A stretch of DNA of 49,074 bases, taken from contig SDNL01000002.1 of the NCBI GenBank assembly GCA_004524365.1, forward strand, positions 1-49,074. The letters run 5' to 3'. Below are positions 2,927-40,740 of the stretch, one piece after another (positions within the stretch are counted from its first letter, which is position 1; each line of letters opens with the position of its first letter). Made by a program: the position numbers and the translations under genes. The stretch comes from Promethearchaeota archaeon. Lineage in GTDB: Archaea; Asgardarchaeota; Lokiarchaeia; Sigyniarchaeales; SOKP01. The notes below the pieces were generated by a model, which was not told the origin of the DNA, did no database searches, and saw only the letters and a program-made list of their open reading frames with translations.

Positions 2927-4057
2927 ATGGCAGAAAAAAACTATTCAATTGACCCTTGGTCCAGTTCGAACATTTTGGAAGAGGATTATGATAGATTGAT
3001 CAATAAGTTTGGAATAGAAAGGATTAATGATATTATGAGAGAACGTTTCAAGGATCATCGATTTATTAGGAGGAAAGTTATATTTGGAAATCGAGATTTA
3101 GACGAAATTTACAAGGCGATAGATAAAGATAAAAAATGGGCTGTAATGTCGGGGATTAAACCTTCTGGTCCTTTTCATTTAGGGACTATGACTACGGCAT
3201 TAGAAATAGTTGAATTCCAGTCTCTTGGTGCCAAAGCGTATTATTGTATTGCAGATATTGAAAGTTATGAAGACAATGGAATCCCCTACGAAGAAGCTGA
3301 AAGCACTGCTGTTGATAACTTAGCAGATATCTTAGCTTTAGGCTTAGATCCCGAAAATGCATATATATATCGACAAAGTGAAGAACCAATTGTAAAAGAC
3401 GTATGTTTTAAAGTTTCAAGACTTGTTACAAATAATATGCTTAAAGCAATTTATGGAAAAAAAACATTCGGTTTATATTTGGCCGCATTAGTTCAATGTG
3501 GAGATATCATCCTTCCACAGATTATGGATGGGGTGCAACCTACTGTTGTTCCCGTGGGAATTGATCAAGACCCTCACATAAGATTAACGAGAGACCTCAC
3601 TCGACGATATTATAAAGAGAAAAAAGTGAACGGAAAAATCATACAAGAGGATTTTTTCTTACCAGGAGCAACATACCATAAACTTCTACCGGGACTAGAT
3701 GGTTCTGAGAAAATGTCAAAGAGAAATCCTAACAGTTATTTTACATTTAATGAACCCCTTGAATCTATAGAGAAAAAAGTACGAAGTGCATTTACTGGAG
3801 GACGAAAAAATATGAAAATGCAAAAAGAGTTAGGGGGCGAACCTCAAAAATGTATGATTTATAAGATATTGACCTATTTTTTCGAAGATGATGATCAACA
3901 ACTTGCAGAAGAATTTGAACAGTGTATTCACGGAGAATTAATGTGTGGTGAACATAAACGTGCTTGTGTTGAAAAGATTATTGAATATGTGAAGGAACAC
4001 CGAAAGAAGAAAGAAAAGAATATAGATAAAGCAAGAGAGATATTAAATATTAATTAA
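2927..4057 (+). CDS. trpS: tryptophan--tRNA ligase (archaeal/eukaryal type)
   Basis: Class I aaRS with a HIGH-like PSGPFHLGT, GIDQDPHIRLTRDL and KMSKS as KMSKR. 376 aa. Confidence 0.8.
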   Translation: MAEKNYSIDPWSSSNILEEDYDRLINKFGIERINDIMRERFKDHRFIRRKVIFGNRDLDEIYKAIDKDKKWAVMSGIKPSGPFHLGTMTTALEIVEFQSLGAKAYYCIADIESYEDNGIPYEEAESTAVDNLADILALGLDPENAYIYRQSEEPIVKDVCFKVSRLVTNNMLKAIYGKKTFGLYLAALVQCGDIILPQIMDGVQPTVVPVGIDQDPHIRLTRDLTRRYYKEKKVNGKIIQEDFFLPGATYHKLLPGLDGSEKMSKRNPNSYFTFNEPLESIEKKVRSAFTGGRKNMKMQKELGGEPQKCMIYKILTYFFEDDDQQLAEEFEQCIHGELMCGEHKRACVEKIIEYVKEHRKKKEKNIDKAREILNIN

Positions 4058-5013
4058 AGCGTGTCTAATTCTTGACCTTGGGTATAAAATGAAGCATCCA
4101 GCGATTTTAAAATTTTTTTAAGTTTTTCAACAAACGGTGAAAAATTCTCCATAAATTCCTTTTTTTCTTGGTCGCTAAGTACAATTGATACATAATAAAC
4201 ACGTTCTTGGACTTCAATTCTGTGTAAATAAGAAAGAAATCCTTTATCAATAGTGAAAAAGTTCTGCTCTTGTTCCTCTTCATCCATTCTCTTCAATAAA
4301 TAAATGTGCTCTTTTATCTTATCCAGAAAATCAAAATATAGCTCTGGTTTGAGGGTATCGGCATAATATTCTGAGATAATTATCCCGTTTTTATCAAATA
4401 AGATAAGCGACGAACAACTAAATTTATCCAAGGAAGTTTCCATGTAAAGAGAAAGCTCAAAGAATTTTCCATCAAATACAGAAAGTCCATATGAAATTAA
4501 CTGTACAATTGAAATTATATCATAAATAGAGGTTTGTTGGAAAAGGATATTAAATGATGTAAACATCTCTTTGATCTTTTCCCTAAGCATTTCAATATCT
4601 TCATTTATTTGGTCATAATTACGAAGTTTTGGATCATATTTATGAAAAGTAACGATTAAGGGAATATTTATTTCATTTTCTATAAAAAAGTCCAATATAG
4701 TGGCCAAATATTCTAATGATTCATCGAATTTTTCCCTATCTTGGATATCTATAGTATATATTAAAAGATTTGTCCCAGCAAAATACACTCCAGGTCGACT
4801 TAAATAAAGTCTCCTATATTTTTCCTGACCACCCATATCCCAGAACACTGTTTCTCGACCGAGAAAGCTTGTCCTCCGATATTCCACTTTGATTGTAGGT
4901 TTAAGTTGGTGAACTTCATCGACAAAATCATATTTTTTATCTAGAGCTGTAAGAATAGATGTCTTACCGGCGTTGTGAAGTCCTGCGATAACTATCTTTA
5001 AAGGATCAACCAT
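4054..5013 (-). CDS. Arf/Rag(Gtr)-family small GTPase with C-terminal roadblock-like domain
   Basis: G1 GLHNAGKTS, switch I KPTIKVE, G3 WDMGGQE, and G4 as HKYD (His as in Rag/Gtr HKxD, not NKxD). The roughly 150-aa C-terminal alpha/beta domain ends FLSYLHRIEVQERVYYVSIVLSDQ...FVEKLKKIL. This parallels the RagA roadblock domain ([21 protein letters not shown]...HFEKLE). At 319 aa it is similar in size to RagA/Gtr1. Confidence 0.6.
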   Translation of the reverse strand: MVDPLKIVIAGLHNAGKTSILTALDKKYDFVDEVHQLKPTIKVEYRRTSFLGRETVFWDMGGQEKYRRLYLSRPGVYFAGTNLLIYTIDIQDREKFDESLEYLATILDFFIENEINIPLIVTFHKYDPKLRNYDQINEDIEMLREKIKEMFTSFNILFQQTSIYDIISIVQLISYGLSVFDGKFFELSLYMETSLDKFSCSSLILFDKNGIIISEYYADTLKPELYFDFLDKIKEHIYLLKRMDEEEQEQNFFTIDKGFLSYLHRIEVQERVYYVSIVLSDQEKKEFMENFSPFVEKLKKILKSLDASFYTQGQELDTL

Positions 5014-5326
5014 TTAATCACTTTTCGTTTGTTAAATAATAAAGTTAAATAATAAAAACTTTTTGAGTTCTATTTTTTATTAATATTTAACTTTATTTAT
5101 ACTATTTAATATTTTTAATGTTTCTTATGAATTATGTATATTTCCATATTTATTTAAACTTATTCCCCAATTCAAAAAATAATATTGATAGATTCTTAAA
5201 AATATTTGCATAAAGGTCTTAATCTTCAGAAAATCTAAGTCTAAAATCTCTCTTATGCTTAAGTTAACATAATAACTTTAAAGCGTTTTTTTCTTATTTA
5301 TATCTTAATTAAAGAAATAATAAGGA

Positions 5327-5749
5327 TTATTCTCCTATAATCGTACAATAGATTTTTCTTGTTCTACTCTTCTCATCAAATTCTAAGTAAATTATTTGTT
5401 GCCACGTGCCATGGACGACTTTTCCATTTTGAACTGGAAAAGTTTCGGAAGTACCGATGAGAAAGGAGCGCAAATGTCCTGCTCCGTTATGATCCCCCCA
5501 TGTTTGATGGTGTGCATAATCTTTATTATAGGGGATTATTTTTTCGAGAAATTCTTCTATATCCGTTTTCATTAATCCTGGCTCATTCTCCGTAGTTGAG
5601 ATTCCCCCCGTAGAGCCCGCTACATGAACATTCACTAATCCGTCGCGTATACCACTTTCATTTACGGCTTGCTGAACTTGAGAGGTAATATCATGAATAT
5701 CACATTTGGGTTGGGTTTGAATATTAAATGTTTTTATTTTTACTGTCAT
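5327..5749 (-). CDS. YjbQ/UPF0047 family protein (secondary thiamine-phosphate synthase family)
   Basis: HVAGSTGGISTTENEPGL...DHNGAGHLRSFLIGTSETFPV..GK...GTWQQI.YLEFD is the typical YjbQ pattern. 140 aa. Confidence 0.8.
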   Translation of the reverse strand: MTVKIKTFNIQTQPKCDIHDITSQVQQAVNESGIRDGLVNVHVAGSTGGISTTENEPGLMKTDIEEFLEKIIPYNKDYAHHQTWGDHNGAGHLRSFLIGTSETFPVQNGKVVHGTWQQIIYLEFDEKSRTRKIYCTIIGE

Positions 5750-5879
5750 TTTTTAGTCTCTATTGAATAAATTAAATTTAAATGTAATTAAATAAGGATA
5801 ATGGTAATAATTAATGCATTTTTTTAAATTTAAGTTAGAAAAACTATTATTAATTTAATAAATTTATTTCATCTTTTCA

Positions 5880-6917
5880 TTAATCTTTTTCTTTAATACA
5901 TGATTCTAAACTCTTTATTTGCTTTAGGATGGCTTTTGGAAGGCTTTCCTCTTCGGCGTCATTTAAAATCAGAATTTTGGACAAAACAAGAAGCTCTTTT
6001 TGGTATATTCCTTCTATATTGCTCCATCCCTTACTTTTGGCTTCAATACAGATAAAATTATTTATCCTCTTTTTTCTCATACAAGTATAATTCTTACAAT
6101 TTAAGCAATTTTTAGGAGTAAAATAAGCATCTCCATTCCTGAGAAAAATTGAGAACTCCCCCAAATTTTTATTATCTAATATTATCCAATCAGAATCTAC
6201 GACTCTGAAGGGTATTTTTAATTGATATAGGTATTTCTTTAACATTTTTGTATTAAGTCTTCTATTCAATTCAGAAGATGACTGTTCTGGTTCGAAATAG
6301 TCCTCACATGTATATTTAATATTATTTTTATTATTCACTATATTCATAAGAGGGATGAAATTTATAACAAAATGATCATTAAGTTTACCTTCCTTCATAT
6401 TCTTTCTAAAAAGTGAGCTAATTTGAGAAAAGACACTTTTTTCATCAAAAATTTTATTGAATTCAAATTTATGTGTGCTTAGTAAACTAAGAAATTTACT
6501 TGTGGAAAAATAAGCATTTTTAATATCTTGAACGGTTTTATCTTTTAAAATAATGCAAAAAAGGATGGTGATAACAGGTAGTCTAATGATAATCTCTTTA
6601 TAATAATCAAGCATTTGCTCCACATTATCTTCTGAAATAAATACAATTACTGCTTCAGCACCGGTATAATACATTGTTCTTACAAAAACCCGTTCCAATT
6701 TACAAGAAATATTCCAAAGATAAAAATCATAAATTTTATTATAAGGAACTTTAGAAATATTTACTCCAATAGTATTCTTATTTTTAAGAGAGAATCCTGT
6801 TTTACTAACTATTTCTTGAAATCTATCCTTTATTTGCTCCACTCCTCCTAAAAGTAAGATTTTTTTCTTATAATATTTCCTTGCAGAGCTTCTACTTTTT
6901 TGCGAAGAAGTCACCAT
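5880..6917 (-). CDS. Rab/Ras-fold pseudo-GTPase with Cys-containing C-terminal domain
   Basis: The G-domain scaffold is retained: KILLLG, switch-I-like TIGVNISKV, YYTGAEAVIVF. The nucleotide motifs are lost. The P-loop is GGVEQIKDRF, DxxGQ is NISCKLE, and NKxD is ILKD. The C-terminal roughly 170 aa contains CLNCKNYTC...FIC. The ATG at 6917 is preferred; the ORF track starts at an upstream GTG (6932). Confidence 0.55.
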   Translation of the reverse strand: MVTSSQKSRSSARKYYKKKILLLGGVEQIKDRFQEIVSKTGFSLKNKNTIGVNISKVPYNKIYDFYLWNISCKLERVFVRTMYYTGAEAVIVFISEDNVEQMLDYYKEIIIRLPVITILFCIILKDKTVQDIKNAYFSTSKFLSLLSTHKFEFNKIFDEKSVFSQISSLFRKNMKEGKLNDHFVINFIPLMNIVNNKNNIKYTCEDYFEPEQSSSELNRRLNTKMLKKYLYQLKIPFRVVDSDWIILDNKNLGEFSIFLRNGDAYFTPKNCLNCKNYTCMRKKRINNFICIEAKSKGWSNIEGIYQKELLVLSKILILNDAEEESLPKAILKQIKSLESCIKEKD

Positions 6918-7153
6918 AGCTTCATTCCCCACAGAATATATTAATATTTACAAGTTTTTTATTATGAGCAATTATCAATAAATGTAAAGCATAGATAATA
7001 AATATGGAACTTTTTTCAATTTTTTCTTAAGATCTTGTTCGTTTGATTATCTTTTTTTTAATTATTAACTAGCAAAAAATTACTATTTTTTTGGGCTTTA
7101 ATAATAAAGAATAAGTATTTTCAATAATTTAGTTTAGTAGGAGCTGATTAAAT

Positions 7154-7597
7154 ATGGGACCCAAAGTTGGCTACGATAAATACAAGGAGTTTATAGATAA
7201 GATTCATGATAAGAAAAATGATATCCCGGAATACATTTCTATAATCATTCGAGAAGGAAAGAAAAAGGATATTATTGATGTTAAAATAAGAAAACTTGAA
7301 TCTAATATTTTAAAAATAATGGCACACGAACAAGAAAAGAAAGGATGGTACACTCATTCTTATCATATCCCTTTAAAAAACCTCGGATTGGATGATGATG
7401 CAAAAAATAAAAACATTTTACCATATCTAAATCATCCCGCCAAAATAATGAGTGATAAGACAACACAAGAAACCGTGAAGGAACTAATAGAAAAATATGT
7501 AGAAGTTATAAGTGAGAGAAAAAAACATTTCTTCCATACTGCGCGCTATAAAGCTAAAAAAGACTATAGTGGCGGGCGTAAAATGAAAGGATTTTAA
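7154..7597 (+). CDS. hypothetical protein (charged, helical)
   Basis: 147-aa ORF with an ATG start and GGAG 11 nt upstream. I recognise no family motif. Confidence 0.5.
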   Translation: MGPKVGYDKYKEFIDKIHDKKNDIPEYISIIIREGKKKDIIDVKIRKLESNILKIMAHEQEKKGWYTHSYHIPLKNLGLDDDAKNKNILPYLNHPAKIMSDKTTQETVKELIEKYVEVISERKKHFFHTARYKAKKDYSGGRKMKGF

Positions 7598-7624
7598 GGA
7601 ATATTTAATAAAATAAAGGATGGG

Positions 7625-8296
7625 TTAAGAATCTTTTAGAGTTAGAAAAACAGTTTCTCCACTCATTACATATTCTAACACAATGTTAAATTTCTTTTCC
7701 ATATATTCCGATATAGCATTAATTATTCCTTGAGCAATACCTATTATGAATTGAGGGGATATTGTATCTTTAATTACGATAGTTTTATCTTCAGACTTAA
7801 TATCTTCTATATCTGAAATATTTTTAAAAATAGGGGCAATTTCATTTTTTAAAACTAATTTTGGATCTATTTTAAAAGAGGCACCTAACTTGATTACTGG
7901 TTCCCTTCTTTTATTCCATAAATAATGACCAATTTTTTTTCCTGCTATAAATAAATTTTCAGGTTCTTGAATTTCTGATAATAATAGAGATAAAAATGCT
8001 AAAAATTCCTTTGAAGGGTCTTTTTTTGCTTTAATTTTTTCAACTTTTTTTATTATTTCTGCTTGTGGCATTTTTGTTTTTACAACCACAGAGGATTCAT
8101 TATCTTTCACGAGAATAATTCTTTCAATACCCCTGACGTTATAATTCTTATCTACATAAACCGTTACAAAATGATCGTTATGAGAAACAAGTATTGGTAC
8201 TATTGATGATAAATTTAATTCAGTTTCTATGGATTTCGGGTCTATTTCATAGGTTATGATTTCACCACAAGTACATTCGAATCTAATTGATGTCAT
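7625..8296 (-). CDS. hypothetical protein: N-terminal Cys-pair module plus possible V4R-like C-terminal domain
   Basis: 223 aa. The N-terminus (FECTCGE...HNDHFVTVYVDKNYNVRG) shares a pattern with ORF 37341-38195. The C-terminal half (FIAGKKIGHYLW...VIKDTISPQFIIGIAQGIINAISEYM...VFLTLK) loosely fits a V4R/Bet3-like layout. Confidence 0.5.
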   Translation of the reverse strand: MTSIRFECTCGEIITYEIDPKSIETELNLSSIVPILVSHNDHFVTVYVDKNYNVRGIERIILVKDNESSVVVKTKMPQAEIIKKVEKIKAKKDPSKEFLAFLSLLLSEIQEPENLFIAGKKIGHYLWNKRREPVIKLGASFKIDPKLVLKNEIAPIFKNISDIEDIKSEDKTIVIKDTISPQFIIGIAQGIINAISEYMEKKFNIVLEYVMSGETVFLTLKDS

Positions 8297-8379
8297 TTTT
8301 TGAGTTGTTTCTATTATTTCATATATATTAGTATATCCTTATAATTCTTAAAAGGTTTTTTTTAATTAAAAAAAAAGAA

Positions 8380-9642
8380 TTAGAAGAATTGAATAATATT
8401 TAAGTAAAACAAGAAAATTGAAAGGAGGATTGCCAATGGGAACACAATGTAATAAAATTTTGTTTTGAACGGTCTTTCTAGGATAGGCATTTTTATTCTT
8501 AAATAAAGCGCTATTATCCCAGCGGGTAACATTGCAGATATTAAAACAATTCCAATCCCTGTAGCTGCGAAAATATCAACAATTAATCCTTCTGTTAAGG
8601 GGATCAACAGAGTCATTATACTCCCAATTATTACTACAAGAATAATAGTAACTCCAATATTAGCAATATGATAGCCCTTTTTAGTTTTATTGAATATTTT
8701 TGGTAGACTATCGTCTCGAGCCATTACTCTTAGTTGATGAATACAAGTGGCTAAAACTGCAAAACAAGTCCCTGCTGCTGAAAAGGCCGCAAAGAATGAA
8801 AGGATAGGGGTTGGGATCCCTGTATTTGAAGCAATAATAACAAAAGGATTGGAAGTTCCCAGATCATTAATTCCTACTAGACTTGATGCTCCTAAGGTGA
8901 CTAAAATATAAACACCTAAAATTGAGAGCAAAGCTATTAAAATTCCTATTGACATTTTAAGATTTCCTTTAATCAATGAATCCTTTTTATTTAATTCTTC
9001 AGTAAAAATCAACATTACTTCAAACCCTAATAAAGCCCAAATAGAAAGGTTTATAGTTTCTTGGAAACCAGAGAAAGTCAATTCATTTACAGAATAATTA
9101 GCTACATCTGCATTCAAAAGCATCAAAATAGATACAATTATTAAAAAGACTATCTTTATTAAAACCCATCCAAGCGCCAAAAAACCAAAAAGACGAGGCG
9201 AAACGATTCCTGATAATAATCCGAAGAGAATTAAAAAGAGCAGAGTAAAAACGACCAACATTAAATTATCTTGAACACCAAAAATCCCTAATGTAAAATT
9301 TGCAGTTAAAAAAGCTAAAAGAGAAGAGATAAATAAATAACCGATATAATATAAAATTCCAACTAAGGTTCCCCACTTTTTATTAACTGCGCCTCCTACA
9401 TAAGAATATGGGCCACCACTCTTGGGAAACATACTAACACATTCAGCATACGACAACCCTGCAGTTAGAAATAATAGCCAACTTATTACAACGGCCAATA
9501 TTGAAAAAATACCAGAACTATTTGCCCACTTGAGAGGATCTCTCCAAATTCCTGATCCAATAACTGTAGTCATACCGATTGCGATGATTCCTAAAAAATT
9601 AATCTTATTTTTATTTTGTTTTTGAGATTCGTTATTAGACAT
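8380..9642 (-). CDS. APC-superfamily amino-acid permease
   Basis: 420 aa with about 12 hydrophobic segments and the N-terminal GIIAIGMTTVIGSGIW motif typical of APC transporters. Confidence 0.75.
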   Translation of the reverse strand: MSNNESQKQNKNKINFLGIIAIGMTTVIGSGIWRDPLKWANSSGIFSILAVVISWLLFLTAGLSYAECVSMFPKSGGPYSYVGGAVNKKWGTLVGILYYIGYLFISSLLAFLTANFTLGIFGVQDNLMLVVFTLLFLILFGLLSGIVSPRLFGFLALGWVLIKIVFLIIVSILMLLNADVANYSVNELTFSGFQETINLSIWALLGFEVMLIFTEELNKKDSLIKGNLKMSIGILIALLSILGVYILVTLGASSLVGINDLGTSNPFVIIASNTGIPTPILSFFAAFSAAGTCFAVLATCIHQLRVMARDDSLPKIFNKTKKGYHIANIGVTIILVVIIGSIMTLLIPLTEGLIVDIFAATGIGIVLISAMLPAGIIALYLRIKMPILERPFKTKFYYIVFPLAILLSIFLFYLNIIQFF

Positions 9643-23373: not shown

Positions 23374-25203
23374 ATGGTGAAAAAAATGGCAAATGAAATG
23401 ATGATAGTTGGATTGGTTTTTGGTTTGGCGTTCTTGATTATAGTGTTGTTATTTATTATCCCTTTAGCGATAATGATATTTGGAATAATAAAATTCGGAA
23501 TGGGGAAAACACTTTTTAAGCCACCTAATTTAACAGAACCCTTTAATCCTAAAGATTTTGGGAGAATGATGAAAATTGTCGAGTATTTGGATTATCTTTT
23601 GATTGCCCTAATATTCATTTTTGGTTTTCCCATATCATTAAGTTCTTTATTCGATTTAGACGCTTCCCCATTATTATTAGGAATGCCTTATGTTCTTCTG
23701 GCTTTTTATATAATTGTATGTTTAGAAGTAATTTTGGTTTTATTAGAACATTATAGAAGAGGAACCAACATCTTCAAGGACCTTTACTATGATTATGAAA
23801 ATGTTTACAAGGCAAACAATATTCCAGTTATTGGTCAATGCAAAATATGCGGGAGAGCAATCCCTCAATATTATGGACTGAAGGTAGGATTAAATTCTGA
23901 TAAACTTTTAGAAGTTCCGATTTGCTTTCAAGCTGATGGTCAACATGTAGTTACATTACAAAACCAAGAAGATAAAAAGTTCTTTAATGAATATCAAAAA
24001 ATATTCGATGAGCTTAATAATATCAGAAATTATTGGGTGTATGGAAAGATAATAATTTTAATTTACTATATTGTAATTAGTGTTATCTTTACTGAATTAC
24101 TTGCGAGTAATATACCGATAATGATTGGATATGGACCTACTAATTCTAATTATTATACAATATACACAATAGCATACGGAGTTTTATCAATGGTTCCCTT
24201 ATCAATCTTATTTAGCATTCAATTTATAGATAACAAGATAACCCATATTTTCTTGATTAAACGGCTATATTTCGATAATATGTATGAGGAAATTAAAGAA
24301 GCTATAGATAACGGAAAGAAGATTGATATTTCATATATTCAACCTCCAGATTACACAAAACAAGGAGATCAATTACCCAGCTTTATTGAGACTATAAAGA
24401 TGGCACGGACTATGGCAAATAATATCAGAAGTGCTACAAAGGGTGTTGCAGCGGTTAAAGATGTAAAAAACATAATGGAATTAGCAAGTACAGTAAAAGG
24501 AGTGGGATCGGACATTGTGGATACTAAAAAAGATGTCGATGATTTTTTGGGAGAGCATACAAGCGGAAAAGGTACATCTGTACCTATTAATTCTTCTCAA
24601 CTCAGAAAACCAGTCGTTAGTAAACTTCAAAAGGAGAAGTGTCCCAATTGTGGAAAAGAGATTGAAGAAGAGTGGAAAAAATGTCCATTTTGTTCTAAGA
24701 TCTTGAAAAAAGATTGTCCTAATTGCGGTAAAACTTTGAAAGTGAATTGGTTGAGTTGTCCTTTCTGTGGATTTGATTTTAATAAATCTAAAAAAACGAA
24801 AAAATCTCAAATTAAACAACAAAGAGCTGAGGATAAACAAGAAGAACCCATTATCGAAGAACAAGAAATTGAACAGAAACCAAAACAATCTGAAAAACTT
24901 CAAGAAGAAACAGATGAAATTGAACCAAAAAAGATTGAGGAAAAAGAAAAAGAAGTTGAGAGTACCAAAAAGAAAGAAGAACCCATTATCGAAGAACAAG
25001 AAATTGAACAGAAACCAAAACAACTAGAAAAATCTCAAGAAGAAACAGATGAAATTGAACCAAAAAAGATTGAGGAAAAAGAAAAAGAAGTTGAGAGTAC
25101 CAAAGAGAAAAAGGAACCATCCTTTAGAATATGCCCAAATTGTGGTAATACTTTAAAACCTAATCAAAAATTTTGTACTCAATGTGGTGCGAAATTTTAT
25201 TAA
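23374..25203 (+). CDS. polytopic membrane protein with three C-terminal zinc ribbons and an acidic tandem repeat
   Basis: Multiple TM segments lie in the first 290 aa. The Zn ribbons are CPNCGKEIEEEWKKCPFC, CPNCGKTLKVNWLSCPFCG and CPNCGNTLKPNQKFCTQCG. A 2 x 45-aa E/K-rich repeat sits between the second and third ribbon. Confidence 0.65.
   Translation: MVKKMANEMMIVGLVFGLAFLIIVLLFIIPLAIMIFGIIKFGMGKTLFKPPNLTEPFNPKDFGRMMKIVEYLDYLLIALIFIFGFPISLSSLFDLDASPLLLGMPYVLLAFYIIVCLEVILVLLEHYRRGTNIFKDLYYDYENVYKANNIPVIGQCKICGRAIPQYYGLKVGLNSDKLLEVPICFQADGQHVVTLQNQEDKKFFNEYQKIFDELNNIRNYWVYGKIIILIYYIVISVIFTELLASNIPIMIGYGPTNSNYYTIYTIAYGVLSMVPLSILFSIQFIDNKITHIFLIKRLYFDNMYEEIKEAIDNGKKIDISYIQPPDYTKQGDQLPSFIETIKMARTMANNIRSATKGVAAVKDVKNIMELASTVKGVGSDIVDTKKDVDDFLGEHTSGKGTSVPINSSQLRKPVVSKLQKEKCPNCGKEIEEEWKKCPFCSKILKKDCPNCGKTLKVNWLSCPFCGFDFNKSKKTKKSQIKQQRAEDKQEEPIIEEQEIEQKPKQSEKLQEETDEIEPKKIEEKEKEVESTKKKEEPIIEEQEIEQKPKQLEKSQEETDEIEPKKIEEKEKEVESTKEKKEPSFRICPNCGNTLKPNQKFCTQCGAKFY
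24841..25110 (+). repeat. near-perfect 2 x 135 bp tandem direct repeat, in frame
   Basis: Copy 1 starts gaagaacccattatcgaag at 24841 and copy 2 at 24976. The only differences seen are caatctgaaaaacttcaa versus caactagaaaaatctcaa and a few bases at the 3' end. It encodes EEPIIEEQEIEQKPKQ(S/L)EK(L/S)QEETDEIEPKKIEEKEKEVESTK. Confidence 0.9.
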
Positions 25204-32751: not shown

Positions 32752-34797
32752 TTAAATGAGATATTTTAATTCTCTTATTTCCTTCATTAGTTTTTTATTG
32801 TTATTTAATTCATTAATTAAAGAATTTATTTGGGAGATTATTAAAGAAACTTGATCATAATTGAATGCTTGAAATTTAGAGGCAGAAAAATAGGGATACG
32901 TATATTTATATTCCTTAAATAAGAGAAGTTTTGTAGAATATAAAAGATGAATAAGTTCTTGAAAGTTATTTCTAATTTCTTTTTTAATCACAGATAAATA
33001 TAAGACATTTATCAATGATTCGGAGAGATCATTGAGGAGATTTAGATTTTTATGAATATTTTGTACATTCAAATCATTATAATACTCTTTGTTTTGTTTT
33101 AAATCATAATTCAATTGAGCAAGAAATTGCAAAACCATCCCGAGGTGCCCAATCGATTTGGGGATTCCCTCAGAGGGAATTGGTAATGTTTTGATGAAGC
33201 TTCCATTAAATCTAAGGTAGTGACCTTGCATATGAAGAGTTCCATATAAGCTCTTAAAAATATGATCTATGAAAGAGGAGTTTAAAACAGTCATAAGAGC
33301 AAATAATTGTGTAGAAGAAAGAGAGGGAATTATAAGAAAATAGAGACCTGTAACATTTGTGAAAATACCAGAGTAATCATACACGCAAGTAAGATTCTTA
33401 GCTATCTCTCTTACCATTATCTTCGGAGAGATTATCATATCTTTTTTCGATTGATCAGGTGGGAAGATAAAATATGAGACTTTCAAATCTCTTTTAGCTA
33501 TCTTAATTCGCTTATTAAACTTAATATGATACATACCAACATTGCCCGTTCCAATTATGAGAGGTAAATTTACTATTGGATCTTTCTCATCATGAGTTTT
33601 ATCAAAAAACTTGGCGTAATTAGTGAATCCATACGGTCGGTAGCCAATAGTTAAATCCTCAAACATTTTTTTCATTGATTCATGTTTAGAAAAAAGTTCA
33701 ATAATCAATCCAACATTACCCTTTATAGGTATAACATGTTTAGGAAGTAATCGGAGATTATCTTGTTTAACTTTTATTTTAGAGTGATGTTGCTTAGAAA
33801 CTAGATCATTTTCATGATTATACTTCTTTATTTCAATATGATTGGTTTTTCCAGGAATTTGTTTATTTATTGTAATAATAACAGGATACGTGGATCTGTT
33901 TTTGAAGATAGGAAGCGAAGAAACATTAATTACTTCCACTATTTGGGTTTTGTTTATTAATAAATCTCTTATTTTTATTCCATAATCCGCAGATAAGAAT
34001 TTATTTGTAATGATAAAACAGAGAAAACCCAAATCTTCTTTTAATAACTTTAAGGCACTTTCAATAAATAAGATGGAGAGATCAAATAACTTATATGCTG
34101 ATTCATAGGAGCGATACAGTTCTTTTTTATATTTCTTATCTCTTATTTTCTTATTCTCAACATAAGGCGGATTTCCAATAATAATATCAAATTTTTTACT
34201 GGATCTGTATTTCAATAAAGTTTCAGTGTGATAAATATTAAAATCCGTTTGGGATAACAATTTTAATTTATTAATATCTTGAAGGTCAATTTTTTTTTCC
34301 CTTTTAAATTTCTCAGGTATCTTATCAGAATATAACCATAATATTAAGCGAAGTTTAGAGATAAGGCAAGCCTTTTTTTCTATGTCTATTCCATGAATAT
34401 TTCGTTCTATTATTCTTTTTTTTAAGAGAAACTCATCCTTTGAAGGATAAATGTTTCTAAATATAATAAACAATTGTTCTGCTAAAGCAATTAAAAATCT
34501 TCCAGAACCACAAGAAGGATCTAGTAATTTGATACTTTTTAAGCATTCGCTTATTTTCTGCTTTATTAGAGGTTTGCTTGAAAATATTTTGTCGAGTTTA
34601 GCGAGATCCAGTTGACTTTTATCTATATCATATCGTAGTAGTAAATATTTTTCAAGATAGAACGTAAGAGTTTTTTTACACATATAATCAACGATTTTTT
34701 TAGGAGTATATGTGGTTCCAAATTTCTTGCTACTGATTGGATTATCATATTTTTTTTGCTCAAAGTTCTTGATTAGCGCTTTTATTTGGCTTTCCAT
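32752..34797 (-). CDS. gamma-class N6-adenine DNA methyltransferase (Eco57I/TaqI-like) with TaqI-type C-terminal specificity domain; no nuclease domain
   Basis: TYTPKKIVDYM near the N-terminus, motif I LLDPSCGSGRFL, motif IV IIGNPPYV. The downstream target-recognition-like region ends FIKTLPIP and is followed by a helical tail. 681 aa. Confidence 0.75.
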   Translation of the reverse strand: MESQIKALIKNFEQKKYDNPISSKKFGTTYTPKKIVDYMCKKTLTFYLEKYLLLRYDIDKSQLDLAKLDKIFSSKPLIKQKISECLKSIKLLDPSCGSGRFLIALAEQLFIIFRNIYPSKDEFLLKKRIIERNIHGIDIEKKACLISKLRLILWLYSDKIPEKFKREKKIDLQDINKLKLLSQTDFNIYHTETLLKYRSSKKFDIIIGNPPYVENKKIRDKKYKKELYRSYESAYKLFDLSILFIESALKLLKEDLGFLCFIITNKFLSADYGIKIRDLLINKTQIVEVINVSSLPIFKNRSTYPVIITINKQIPGKTNHIEIKKYNHENDLVSKQHHSKIKVKQDNLRLLPKHVIPIKGNVGLIIELFSKHESMKKMFEDLTIGYRPYGFTNYAKFFDKTHDEKDPIVNLPLIIGTGNVGMYHIKFNKRIKIAKRDLKVSYFIFPPDQSKKDMIISPKIMVREIAKNLTCVYDYSGIFTNVTGLYFLIIPSLSSTQLFALMTVLNSSFIDHIFKSLYGTLHMQGHYLRFNGSFIKTLPIPSEGIPKSIGHLGMVLQFLAQLNYDLKQNKEYYNDLNVQNIHKNLNLLNDLSESLINVLYLSVIKKEIRNNFQELIHLLYSTKLLLFKEYKYTYPYFSASKFQAFNYDQVSLIISQINSLINELNNNKKLMKEIRELKYLI

Positions 34798-36597: not shown

Positions 36598-37281
36598 ATG
36601 AGCGAATCTATATTATTTCCAATCGCATTTATTTATTATTTTGTTTTAATCATAGTTAAGTTTTCAGCTGCAGCCATATTCTATAAAACTTACTATGATT
36701 CTAAAGTGAATAAATTGGTCTTAGGAGCTTCCTTATTATTCTTGTTTTCCGCAATATCTCGAATAATTATGGTTATTTTTGATTTTCCTTTAACCAAATT
36801 TGATTCAAGCTTATATCAAAATTATGCTATTATTTGGAAAATCGGTTATTTTATAAATAATATGGGGTATGTGTGTCTTATTTTTATTTCAGAAATAGCA
36901 ATACTCAAGAAAAAATCAAGATTTTTAATATCAATCTTTTATTTTATATCCCTTATCATCTCAATTGTCCCAATAGATATTAAAACAGTTCAGGTGATTT
37001 CAATTATCCCTTCAACTCTTGCAATGATTTTCATCCCATTAACTTATTTGTTTTTAGCAAAATATAAAACGATTCGTACACGTGCCTTAGCAATATTTGG
37101 TGGATATATACTCTTTTTTACAGGATCATTAATATTTATTGAAGAAATCGTTCAAGTATTTATTTCACTTAATCCAAGTCAAGCTCTAAATATACGAAGC
37201 TTAATTCATATAATCTCAATTAGCGTGAAAATAGTGGGAATTGGTATTATGATTTATGGATATCGAAAAAAGTTAGTATGA
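36598..37281 (+). CDS. integral membrane protein (about 7 TM)
   Basis: 227-aa hydrophobic ORF. No family motif recognised. Confidence 0.5.
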   Translation: MSESILFPIAFIYYFVLIIVKFSAAAIFYKTYYDSKVNKLVLGASLLFLFSAISRIIMVIFDFPLTKFDSSLYQNYAIIWKIGYFINNMGYVCLIFISEIAILKKKSRFLISIFYFISLIISIVPIDIKTVQVISIIPSTLAMIFIPLTYLFLAKYKTIRTRALAIFGGYILFFTGSLIFIEEIVQVFISLNPSQALNIRSLIHIISISVKIVGIGIMIYGYRKKLV

Positions 37282-37340: not shown

Positions 37341-38195
37341 TTAAAGTCCAAGATTGGGAAAATAATAATCAGACAAACCTGAGAGATTATATCCATGATA
37401 ATTTTTTACGATTTCTAATAAAAATTCTAAATATTCTGATTGTATATTAATTTCAAATTTTTCACTAAGTATATCGACTAATTTTTTTTTACTTAATTTT
37501 TGATTTCCATTATTATTTTGAAGGATGTTTATGATTTCATTAGACATTCGGAAAGCTTTATTTATCTCGTTTCTAAAAAGGAGTAATCCATAAGAAGGAT
37601 CTTCTTCAAAAAGAAATTTTTTAACAATTGCGCTTTCAATTTTAATTCTTCTTTTCTTCATATCTTTTTTCTTATTTTTTAATATATTGTCCATATAAAT
37701 GACTTCATGTTTTTTATAACTTTTTTTGTCTTTTCTATATTCATATTGATTTAGAATTGAGAAATCATAATGGAAATTATCATGAAATATAAACTCAATC
37801 ATATTATATAGGGGGTTATATATAACGTCATTATCATGTATGAACAGAATCTTTTTTTTCATAAGAATGCCATTTAGGATATAGACAATTTCTAGAGCTT
37901 TAATATTCAATACTATCAAATCGACTTTGATATCATCAACTTTTTTATTTGCTTCTGAGGTTTTAACATAATCTTGTTTAATTTCTGGAAGTTCGATTTT
38001 AAAATCACAAACAAAACTATCTCGAATATTTAAATTTTTATCTATATATGCTACAAATGAATGTTCACAAATAATATTTTCCTTAATATTTATCGCTGCA
38101 AGCCCGCTACTACTTTTTTTTAATATATCAACCTTTTTTAATTCAACTTTTCCATATTTATTACACAACGGGCAATTTATTTGAACTTTAACCAT
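37341..38195 (-). CDS. hypothetical protein with N-terminal Cys-pair module paralogous to 7625-8296
   Basis: The N-terminus is INCPLCNKYGKVEL...CEHSFVAYIDKNLNIRDSF, compared with ECTCGEIITYEI...HNDHFVTVYVDKNYNVRGIE in the other ORF. The rest is K/N-rich and helical. Confidence 0.5.
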   Translation of the reverse strand: MVKVQINCPLCNKYGKVELKKVDILKKSSSGLAAINIKENIICEHSFVAYIDKNLNIRDSFVCDFKIELPEIKQDYVKTSEANKKVDDIKVDLIVLNIKALEIVYILNGILMKKKILFIHDNDVIYNPLYNMIEFIFHDNFHYDFSILNQYEYRKDKKSYKKHEVIYMDNILKNKKKDMKKRRIKIESAIVKKFLFEEDPSYGLLLFRNEINKAFRMSNEIINILQNNNGNQKLSKKKLVDILSEKFEINIQSEYLEFLLEIVKNYHGYNLSGLSDYYFPNLGL

Positions 38196-39050: not shown

Positions 39051-39932
39051 TTATTCTTCTTGCAAAAATTCTTTTAAAATCTTACCAGAATCAGATTCTA
39101 GGTTAAATTTTCTCCCAAAATAATTACATATATTGTCAATATCTCTTTTCAAAAACATTAAAGCGTTAGGATGATCGGCAGAAACGGCTTGGAGCCAGTC
39201 GATTAAAAGAACATTTCCTTCCTCGTCGCAAACAACGTTAAATTCGCCCATATCTCCATGAATAAGACGAGCTTTTCGATAAATTAGTTTCATTTGGTCT
39301 ATTATTTCTTCGAATATATAAGTTGGATAGTTGATATCCTTAAAGTAGGCTAATTCCTTACCTCGAAGATATTCCATCACAATCATATGCCTATTTTGTG
39401 CTATAGGTGTAGGAGTTTTTACATTATAATTGGAAAGTATTTCCAAATTTTCATATTCTTTCTTTGCAGCAAGACGATTGACATGCAACCAATTAAAATG
39501 AGCCCTTTTCCCTATAAGATTTCGATATAATTTAACATTCTTAAAAGAGACACGACCAATTCTGTAAACTTTCAATGCATAAATATTTTCTTCATCATCT
39601 ATACAGCTATAAACATCACTTTCTTTCCCTTTTCCAATAGCGGGGCCTAATTGACTTATAATATCTCTTTTTACTATATTTTTAAGTGCTAAGACATCAT
39701 AACCGAAGGAATTCAACTTATAGGCCATTTGGGTCTTAGTTGTATTCCTCATAGTGAGTCCGAACTTATGTATTCGGTCTAATCGATATTGTGTTTCTTC
39801 CATTTTATACCGAGCATAAAATCTTATATCGCTTAATTTTACGAATTTTGATTTTTTCATTCCGAATTCTATTGCTTTAAGCACTTTAAAATCTTCCTTT
39901 TCTAATTTCGGTAATAGCTTAGCGACTTTCAC
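39051..39932 (-). CDS. rio2: RIO2-type serine/threonine protein kinase
   Basis: N-terminal winged helix (EDFKVLKAIEFGMKK), IGKGKESDVY, ALKVYRIG, catalytic LIHGDMGEFNV, and LIDW. GTG start with GAGGGTGG 8 nt upstream (39941-39948). Confidence 0.85.
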   Translation of the reverse strand: MKVAKLLPKLEKEDFKVLKAIEFGMKKSKFVKLSDIRFYARYKMEETQYRLDRIHKFGLTMRNTTKTQMAYKLNSFGYDVLALKNIVKRDIISQLGPAIGKGKESDVYSCIDDEENIYALKVYRIGRVSFKNVKLYRNLIGKRAHFNWLHVNRLAAKKEYENLEILSNYNVKTPTPIAQNRHMIVMEYLRGKELAYFKDINYPTYIFEEIIDQMKLIYRKARLIHGDMGEFNVVCDEEGNVLLIDWLQAVSADHPNALMFLKRDIDNICNYFGRKFNLESDSGKILKEFLQEE

Positions 39933-40740
39933 TTTCTATTCCACCCTCAGCTGAAAGATATATGAATTTCCAATATACTTTACCAAAGCTATATAATTTG
40001 TAAATATGAGGGATTAAAGCAATCATTAAGGCAATAAGATTTAATAAAGAGAAAACGGTTATTTCAAGTATTGAAATATAGTAAATAGAAGATGTAGAAC
40101 CCGGTTGATGCAAAAATAAAAAAATTCCTTTCTGTAAGTAGAGAATAATGCCTATACTAATAATAATTCCCATTAGAGAAAAGATGATTAAATCGAGATC
40201 CCTTTCATATATCCCCAAAAGTATGTTAATAATGCATAATATCAAAGAAATGATTACAAAGGATTGGTATGAAATAATCCAATAATCGTAAAATGTCGCT
40301 GTTATTATATAAGATCCCCACAATCTTGGACTAAATAACGGAATTAATATCGAAATAAGAGATAAGACTAGAAAAATAACTATTCCGATCAAAATAAGGA
40401 AGCATAAACGAATAGTAAAGAAATGGTTAAATTTAAGAATATCTTCTTTTTTTCTCTCTTTAGTAGGTTTTAACATCTCATTTAATAGTTTATGAACCTC
40501 ATTGGGGAATGTTTCTTTTTTCTCATTAATTATCCATTCATCTTCAGAATAAGTGGAAATGAGTTCTTTTAACCGTTCTTTACCTTGTATTAAAATGCTT
40601 TCTTTTATTTCGGGGCCTTTCCAGAGAAATATTTTATTAGATTTTTCATCAAATATAGCTAATATATCGTGAAATAGAAGAATTTCAGTTTCTTCTATCC
40701 ATTTATCTTTTTCTTTATTATAAATAAAAGTTTTGAGCAT
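39919..40740 (-). CDS. gelsolin-like domain protein with C-terminal 4-5 TM membrane anchor (tentative)
   Basis: The N-terminal roughly 95 aa is TFIYNKEKDKWIEETEILLFHDILAIFDEKSNKIFLWKGPEIKESILIQGKERLKELIS...EWIINEKKETFPNEVHKLL. This follows the gelsolin-repeat pattern (F..gD.yil......iy.W.G......E...a...a..l.......e..E). Four to five hydrophobic helices follow. The 3' end overlaps rio2 by 14 nt. Confidence 0.45.
   Translation of the reverse strand: MLKTFIYNKEKDKWIEETEILLFHDILAIFDEKSNKIFLWKGPEIKESILIQGKERLKELISTYSEDEWIINEKKETFPNEVHKLLNEMLKPTKERKKEDILKFNHFFTIRLCFLILIGIVIFLVLSLISILIPLFSPRLWGSYIITATFYDYWIISYQSFVIISLILCIINILLGIYERDLDLIIFSLMGIIISIGIILYLQKGIFLFLHQPGSTSSIYYISILEITVFSLLNLIALMIALIPHIYKLYSFGKVYWKFIYLSAEGGIESESR

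Follow-up and report, generated by a model that had tools for sequence, protein, structure and literature searches.

The window analyzed here is a 49,074-nucleotide (nt) stretch of contig SDNL01000002.1 from a Promethearchaeota archaeon (GenBank assembly GCA_004524365.1). On its minus strand, positions 39919-40740 hold an open reading frame (ORF) that runs from ATG to TAA and encodes a protein of 273 amino acids (aa), here called GelTM, with an N-terminal domain of ~100 aa followed by four transmembrane helices. There is no rival ORF of ≥50 aa on the plus strand opposite 39919-40740, and the start codon is considered reliable because 30/30 close homologues start at the same Met. As discussed below, profile comparisons and structure modeling make it secure that the N-domain has a gelsolin fold and is homologous to the gelsolin repeats. 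GelTM is a known domain in a new architecture, a gelsolin head on an orphan four-helix membrane anchor, and it belongs to a sizeable, unannotated, Asgard-associated family. The features of the gene are as follows (TM1 to TM4, transmembrane helices; K+R, number of lysines plus arginines).

39919..40740, minus strand: complete GelTM ORF, 273 aa plus TAA; 30 close homologues of 259-275 aa, 105 representative clusters
40438..40740, minus strand: gelsolin-fold domain, residues 1-101; AlphaFold2, Foldseek, hidden Markov model (HMM) search against PDB, hhalign
40615..40623, minus strand: W40-K41-G42, the gelsolin "WxG" signature motif; alignment of 50 diverse members
40408..40476, minus strand: basic juxtamembrane linker, residues 89-111 (KPTKERKKEDILKFNHFFTIR), from the end of the C-terminal helix of the head into TM1; family K+R mean 4.7, AlphaFold2 helices 80-101 and 107-136
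40333..40407, minus strand: TM1, residues 112-136; hydropathy, AlphaFold2 helix
40210..40278, minus strand: TM2, residues 155-177; hydropathy, AlphaFold2
40132..40191, minus strand: TM3, residues 184-203; hydropathy, AlphaFold2
40078..40131, minus strand: residues 204-221 (QKGIFLFLHQPGSTSSIY), the top conservation within the membrane module; alignment, AlphaFold2
40006..40077, minus strand: TM4, residues 222-245; hydropathy, AlphaFold2
39919..40005, minus strand: basic, predicted cytoplasmic C-tail, residues 246-273 plus stop; family K+R mean 3.6

The gelsolin-fold head

An earlier note on this DNA, made from the letters alone, had recognized a gelsolin/villin repeat pattern at the N-terminus of the protein, citing peptides at residues 21-48 (LLFHDILAIFDEKSNKIFLWKGPEIKES), 49-62 (ILIQGKERLKELIS), and 68-82 (EWIINEKKETFPNEV). 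The structural model bears this out. Template-free AlphaFold2 prediction (predicted local distance difference test, pLDDT, 86.9 for the full protein; pLDDT 88.3 and predicted template-modeling score, pTM, 0.76 for the head alone) builds the head from strands 2-8, 13-16, 26-31, and 36-41, a long helix at 47-64, a strand at 70-72, and a helix at 80-101, and the cited peptides coincide with the elements from strand 26-31 onward (strands 26-31 and 36-41, helix 47-64, strand 70-72, and helix 80-101). When the head model is compared with PDB by Foldseek, the top 50 matches are all gelsolin-family domains. The best of these is 7c2f_B, Thorarchaeota ProGel in complex with rabbit actin (E=1.7e-5; TM-score 0.63 normalized to the query and 0.72 to the target; root-mean-square deviation 2.9 Å), and cofilin, ADF-H, and Sec23/24 chains are all missing from these 50. 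With a confident AlphaFold2 model and a Foldseek top 50 made up of gelsolin-family domains, free of cofilin and Sec23/24, the fold can be assigned securely. The head is accordingly counted among the three-layer folds of the gelsolin repeats, in which a long helix and a shorter C-terminal helix sandwich a mixed beta-sheet. Moreover, the trunk, zinc-finger, beta-barrel, and helical architecture of Sec23/Sec24 was not found in GelTM by Pfam.

Profile comparisons, the other check proposed for the N-domain in the earlier note, lead to the same family. A profile of the N-domain only (A2), run with hmmsearch against 177,635 PDB sequences, matches gelsolin (3.4e-7) and villin (4.5e-7), and nearly all its matches are gelsolin-family. 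The strongest fall in the gelsolin G3 and villin V3 regions, where the E-value of 3e-7 is that of the whole chain; single-domain chains are matched as well, namely adseverin A3 (2e-4) and ProGel 7c2f_B (2.6e-3). With the full-length family profile, the leading matches in the same PDB set are villin, gelsolin, adseverin, CapG, and an Asgard gelsolin-like chain (E ~1e-3 to 1e-2). The core that aligns with gelsolin in the A2 search is the strand-strand-helix segment "D..ILD...IY.W.G..s......A". In addition, P79, which is invariant in the family, aligns to the proline of the gelsolin "(E)P..F" end motif, and the C-terminal "P..I/F" motif of the domain is conserved. Profile-profile comparison by hhalign of A2 with a crude profile made from ten eukaryotic gelsolin repeats (A8) gave a probability of 87% (P=4e-6) over residues 22-74. 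Conversely, when the full-length family profile was run by hmmsearch exhaustively over 1.84 billion representative proteins, the eukaryotic multi-repeat villin/gelsolin-type proteins P0124 and P0128 came up at E ~1e-4.

Family profiles were needed to see this relationship. As a single sequence, GelTM has no gelsolin match in Pfam and no phmmer match in PDB, and the Gelsolin repeat model PF00626 does not match it even at E≤10. Among 50 diverse family members PF00626 is the commonest family (13/50), with every match below the gathering threshold and a best E of 0.001. Because PF00626 stays below threshold, the public copies are labeled "hypothetical protein", and the curated model misses a whole branch of Asgard gelsolin-domain proteins.

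The signature residues are consistent with this assignment. The WxG motif has been used as a gelsolin signature [Akil et al. 2022, PMC9433394]. In the 50 diverse members, G42 is invariant (50/50) and position 40 is aromatic in 49/50; D25, the strand-C Asp, is present in 49/50, in a register one residue off that of gelsolin. In cofilins, WP replaces WxG and additional helices surround the core [Akil et al. 2020, PMC7444086]. An ADF/cofilin identity was rejected, given the WxG of GelTM and the Foldseek top 50 free of cofilin/ADF-H chains.

The resemblance to gelsolins read from the sequence in the earlier note stands, with one correction that concerns calcium. The position of the Type II Ca2+-binding glutamate (W+9) is I49 in GelTM and is acidic in 0/30 members of its sub-family, so that the glutamate is missing there. 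Since this position is non-acidic and ProGel has no Ca2+ sites [PMC7444086], the GelTM head is likened to ProGel, and it is probably Ca2+-independent. The position is acidic in 9/14 members of the sub-group found in the cultured strains, and Ca2+ regulation may differ between lineages. This sub-group (b; P0060-P0086, loci L068 and L069; found in cultured Lokiarchaeia) also has a conserved C-terminal motif, "S(K/R)PTILRDK".

The membrane module and the family

Hydropathy gives four hydrophobic segments in GelTM (~112-136, 155-177, 184-203, and 222-245). Four to five transmembrane helices had been expected from the sequence; hydropathy and AlphaFold2 agree on four, and the fifth is dropped. TM2 is followed by a short acidic loop, YERDLD, in which E179 is family-invariant. 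In loop 3 (QQGIFLFLFQxGST; residues 204-221), G205, I206, L208, and F209 are invariant and Q212 and G214 are kept in ≥90% of the members. AlphaFold2 pairs a strand in loop 1 (143-147) with strand 219-223, and loop 3 is predicted to lie on the outer face. The module appears to stand on its own: a profile of residues 100-273 has a best E of 1.4 against the PDB sequences, to an unrelated enzyme, NCBIfam gives nothing near its cut-off, and Pfam only a weak, sub-threshold Asp4 match over TM1. Kinship to known membrane-protein families was rejected on these grounds, there being no Pfam, NCBIfam, or PDB relative.

The distribution of charges is strongly skewed. The family means of K+R are 4.7 in the linker preceding TM1 and 3.6 in the C-tail, whereas loop 1 has 0.5 and loop 3 has 0.2; the overall K+R bias is ~8.7 on the putative inside vs 0.7 on the putative outside. 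GelTM has no N-terminal signal peptide, and related sub-groups carry long, K/E-rich C-terminal tails. Because there are four TM helices and by the positive-inside rule, the gelsolin head and the two termini are all predicted to lie in the cytoplasm, which is the side that the topology check suggested in the earlier note needed to establish. None of the outcomes named there as refuting the idea (a non-gelsolin fold, no profile match, a head predicted to be extracellular) was observed. AlphaFold2 helix 80-101 runs nearly straight into the TM1 helix (107-136), and the head is therefore placed at the membrane surface. A head that faces outward, or a gelsolin likeness produced by modeling or by chance, is very improbable and is largely refuted. 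It could be argued that the topology is derived from charge distribution alone and that the Pfam Gelsolin model stays under threshold on every member. However, GelTM lacks a signal peptide and the export of a folded N-terminal domain of ~100 aa is unlikely, in addition to the K+R imbalance just described; as to an artefact, four independent lines agree (the HMM against PDB, template-free AlphaFold2 with Foldseek, hhalign, and the reverse villin match among 1.84 billion proteins).

Several metagenome members (P0070, P0106, P0123, and P0036) carry long low-complexity tails at the cytoplasmic end, either with KKSTKKS / TKPSTTKKPA repeats or K/E-rich. These tails could be extra interaction or spacer regions.

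The family is large. A first homologue search gave 30 clusters of 259-275 aa, and an exhaustive search of the 1.84 billion representatives (E≤1e-3) extended this to 105 representative clusters of an unannotated family; the further tiers are proteins of 250-320 aa that match over both modules. The members fall into several sub-groups with differing C-terminal tails, and the gelsolin head and the transmembrane bundle are kept together throughout. Three short proteins of 92-118 aa (P0109, P0126, and P0130) are apparently complete, soluble, single-domain relatives. For the most distant sub-groups, c (P0077/88/94) and d (P0095-P0123), genome scans with P0121 and with alignment A7 gave no relatives; a word-indexed search with the broad alignment A5 gave three proteins.

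In GTDB species-representative genomes, the sub-family of GelTM occupies 60 loci, and the named lineages are almost all Promethearchaeota or Promethearchaeia. Another 10 genomes, among them those of Candidatus Lokiarchaeum ossiferum B35, Promethearchaeum syntrophicum MK-D1, and Ca. Harpocratesius repetitus, carry a divergent sub-group. As no assembly is present in both lists, there is one detectable copy per genome (~70 species-level genomes). The homologues in the cultured strains are UYP46179.1 (NEF87_002464) in L. ossiferum and QEE14692.1 (DSAG12_00505) in P. syntrophicum, both annotated "hypothetical protein". Judged by sequence, the GelTM family is conserved across Loki-type Asgard archaea, including both cultured species.

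A few loci carry other labels. Four of them, labeled Hermodarchaeota, Hodarchaeota, and Odinarchaeota (L013, L017, L036, and L045), have the same gene and synteny with 39-44% identity to GelTM, much as the Promethearchaeota records do; either the sub-family extends beyond Lokiarchaeia, or the labels of these metagenome-assembled genomes (MAGs) are unreliable. A contig titled "Candidatus Nanopelagicaceae bacterium" (L037, DATKTW010000096.1) has at 2962-8684 a complete Loki-type gene order (POR-beta, GelTM, Rio2, methyltransferase, metallophosphoesterase, N6-methylase) with 37-74% identity to the window proteins; most likely, an Asgard contig has been mis-binned into a bacterial MAG.

Gene neighborhood

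A four-gene 2-oxoacid:ferredoxin oxidoreductase cluster lies 92 nt upstream of GelTM, which is followed directly by a kinase gene.

39051..39932, minus strand: Rio2 atypical protein kinase gene, GTG start; Pfam RIO1 4.7e-51, Rio2_N 1e-18

The end of GelTM overlaps the GTG start of Rio2 by 14 nt (39919-39932), and a Shine-Dalgarno-like GAGGGTGG, read directly from the DNA, lies within the last GelTM codons and precedes the Rio2 start. This arrangement suggests translational coupling of the membrane protein with a ribosome-biogenesis kinase, and the two genes are probably co-transcribed. The junction varies elsewhere: locus L001 has the same 14-nt overlap, L004 a 4-nt overlap, and L003 and L005 have gaps of 62-87 nt.

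Among the loci of the GelTM sub-family, Rio2 is directly downstream in 63/65 and POR-beta upstream in 61/65. In the cultured strains and their relatives, TFIIB is upstream, a large N6-methyltransferase-like gene is downstream, and Rio2 is not adjacent. Because the neighbors differ in the cultured strains and the methyltransferase is shared by both sub-families, the context looks like conserved vertical synteny and not like a functional operon. The idea of a functional tie to Rio2 was set aside, since L. ossiferum, MK-D1, and their relatives lack the adjacency and synteny extends over the entire block.

The shared gene resembles Eco57I/MmeI-type N6 DNA methylases. It lies in the window at 32752-34797 on the minus strand and belongs to the synteny block throughout; in the sub-family of GelTM it is found ~3.5 kb downstream. 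In L. ossiferum and MK-D1 (L068, 4842-7844; L069, 4845-7343) the methylase-like ORF directly abuts or overlaps the GelTM homologue, and five intervening genes (Rio2, methyltransferase, LSM, GGACT, and metallophosphoesterase) are missing there.

A candidate link between actin and the membrane

Cultured Asgard archaea shape and move long protrusions by means of an actin cytoskeleton, and the known Asgard regulators (profilins and soluble gelsolins) leave the connection between filament and membrane unexplained. GelTM is a concrete candidate for this missing link, being conserved, apparently single-copy, and equipped with a predicted cytoplasmic gelsolin head.

No member of the gelsolin family in eukaryotes is known to be an integral membrane protein. 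The repeats of eukaryotic gelsolin, villin, adseverin, and CapG (PF00626), repeat 3 in particular, give the best sequence-profile matches to the GelTM head, with which they share the order strand-strand-long helix-strand-helix, the "D..ILD...IY.W.G" core, and the "(E)P..F/I" end. However, eukaryotic gelsolins have three or six repeats, whereas GelTM has one, which scores below the Pfam threshold and, in its sub-family, lacks the Type II Ca2+ glutamate.

The closer likeness is to ProGel, a gelsolin/cofilin prototype: a single gelsolin-fold domain of ~90-100 aa, the best structural match, with a WxG-type signature, no Ca2+-binding glutamate, and an Asgard origin. ProGel is a free, soluble protein of ~90 aa, while in the 273-aa GelTM a basic helix joins the head to a conserved four-TM module; ProGel and the head are only ~18% identical in sequence (HMM E 2.6e-3). 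Actin binding is demonstrated for ProGel; for GelTM we infer it.

Three Asgard gelsolin architectures, ProGel, 1DGelX, and 2DGel, have been described, all soluble [Akil et al. 2020, PMC7444086]. A later study adds 2DGels with a C-terminal extension and does not mention transmembrane forms [Akil et al. 2022, PMC9433394], and a 2025 preprint on crawling motility presents five gelsolin-homology proteins of L. ossiferum, with UYP46179.1 not among them [10.1101/2025.11.30.690169]. The remark in the earlier note that the characterized Asgard gelsolins are soluble agrees with all three sources. As in GelTM, the gelsolin domain of 1DGelX, 2DGel, and B35_Gel is followed by a C-terminal extension, but theirs is a coiled-coil, disordered, Zn-binding, or second gelsolin domain, all soluble, and that of GelTM is a four-TM anchor. 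Such extension of the domain has been proposed as a theme in gelsolin evolution [PMC7444086]. GelTM thus represents a fourth architecture beside ProGel, 1DGelX, and 2DGel, the series used to reconstruct the evolution of gelsolin and cofilin. A full-text literature search for a membrane-anchored gelsolin from Asgard archaea or Lokiarchaeota found no description, with incomplete journal coverage that leaves room for an earlier one.

We give a probability of roughly 0.55 to the reading that the head is a ProGel-like actin binder at the inner face of the membrane and tethers lokiactin filaments there. In this scenario, the four TM helices would leave both termini in the cytoplasm and hold the head directly on the inner membrane face, with the basic helix linking it to TM1, and the head would act without calcium control. 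ProGel binds actin weakly, at a site overlapping that of gelsolin G1/cofilin, and needs very high concentrations to bundle filaments [PMC7444086]. A filament-to-membrane tether or local cap is plausible because anchoring would raise the effective concentration of a weak ProGel-like head. Once fixed at the membrane, even a weak binder would work effectively as a two-dimensional tether or as a local cap, and actin filaments would become coupled to the membrane, e.g., in protrusions. In favor of this reading, the family has members in L. ossiferum and P. syntrophicum, both of which have actin-filled, dynamic protrusions; 105 clusters keep both modules together; and each genome has one detectable copy in conserved synteny.

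Several observations weigh against it. The long helix exposes a variable face, mostly K/E/D/S, that does not carry a conserved hydrophobic plug of the gelsolin G1 kind; the strongest exposed conservation is in W14, E16, E17, H24, and D25, in the region from strand 2 to strand 3. Actin binding is not known for every gelsolin-fold domain, Sec23 being an example [PMC7444086]. The topology of GelTM is based on the charge rule. No cytoskeletal gene lies near GelTM, and its neighbors are metabolic or housekeeping genes. The homologue is not in the listed L. ossiferum matches from Lokiactin co-immunoprecipitation, a method in which, according to the authors, membrane proteins are under-represented [10.1101/2025.11.30.690169]. 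By an uncertain interpolation of locus tags in L. ossiferum, GNAMCCOK_02486 (54.8 kDa) fits the RtcB neighbor, so that the homologue is probably 02484 and possibly 02483 (low-level detection); with that uncertainty in the mapping, the likeliest tag, 02484, is not among the proteome-table entries listed.

Some of these observations fit an unlikely alternative in which the gelsolin fold does not bind actin but makes other protein or lipid contacts, as in Sec23/24, and the function resides in the orphan TM module (transport, membrane organization, or assembly of surface structures). In its favor are the poorly conserved exposed face of the long helix, the concentration of conservation in the W14-E16-E17/H24-D25 region and the TM module, the missing cytoskeletal gene context, and the absence of the homologue from the published co-immunoprecipitation list. 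The structural comparison argues otherwise: the top 50 matches are all actin-binding gelsolin-family domains, none of them Sec23/24 or cofilin, and the nearest structure is an actin-bound Asgard protein. Moreover, the genomes in which the family has been found so far are all of the Promethearchaeota type, and such genomes have lokiactin.

Actin binding by the head could also serve a more active function. GelTM would then be a regulator at the membrane that caps, severs, seeds, or sequesters, and the outer loop (GIFLF...QxGST) could sense the outside and relay the signal. No other part of the TM module is as conserved as this loop, which is in line with such a role, and the acidic Type II Ca2+ position in 9/14 members of the cultured-Loki sub-group hints at regulation there. 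Nevertheless, one ProGel-like domain on its own showed little capping or severing in vitro [PMC7444086], no WH2-like LKKV/LRRV motif is evident by eye after the domain, and there is no evidence of signaling across the four-helix bundle, so that we consider regulation of this kind doubtful.

Returning to the tether, we infer the cytoplasmic orientation, the actin binding, and the tethering role of GelTM, and the family is the first candidate for a direct fastener of the actin skeleton to the membrane in Loki-type Asgard archaea. The tethering idea can be tested now because homologues exist in both cultured species (UYP46179.1 and QEE14692.1). A wider proposal, to which we give somewhat less than even odds, is that the family is the first archaeal integral-membrane actin-binding protein, couples lokiactin to the membrane, and is required for building or moving the protrusions of Lokiarchaeia. 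The eukaryotic actin-membrane linkers (ERM proteins and talin) have the same proposed task, joining cortical actin to the membrane, and the analogy is functional only: their folds are unrelated (FERM and others) and they are peripheral, whereas GelTM is integral, with no homology to them. If the tether is real, archaeal coupling of actin to the membrane would predate, and be unlike, the peripheral linkers of eukaryotes.

Two further parts of the window deserve mention. ORFs of 227 and 284 aa at 36598-37281 (plus strand) and 37341-38195 (minus strand), neither with a Pfam match, sit where L001 and L003-L005 carry small LSM and GGACT genes, and may be a lineage-specific insertion or replacement. 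Farther away, at 23374-25203 on the plus strand, a 609-aa protein with no other recognized domain has several C-terminal zinc-ribbon / double-zinc-ribbon modules.

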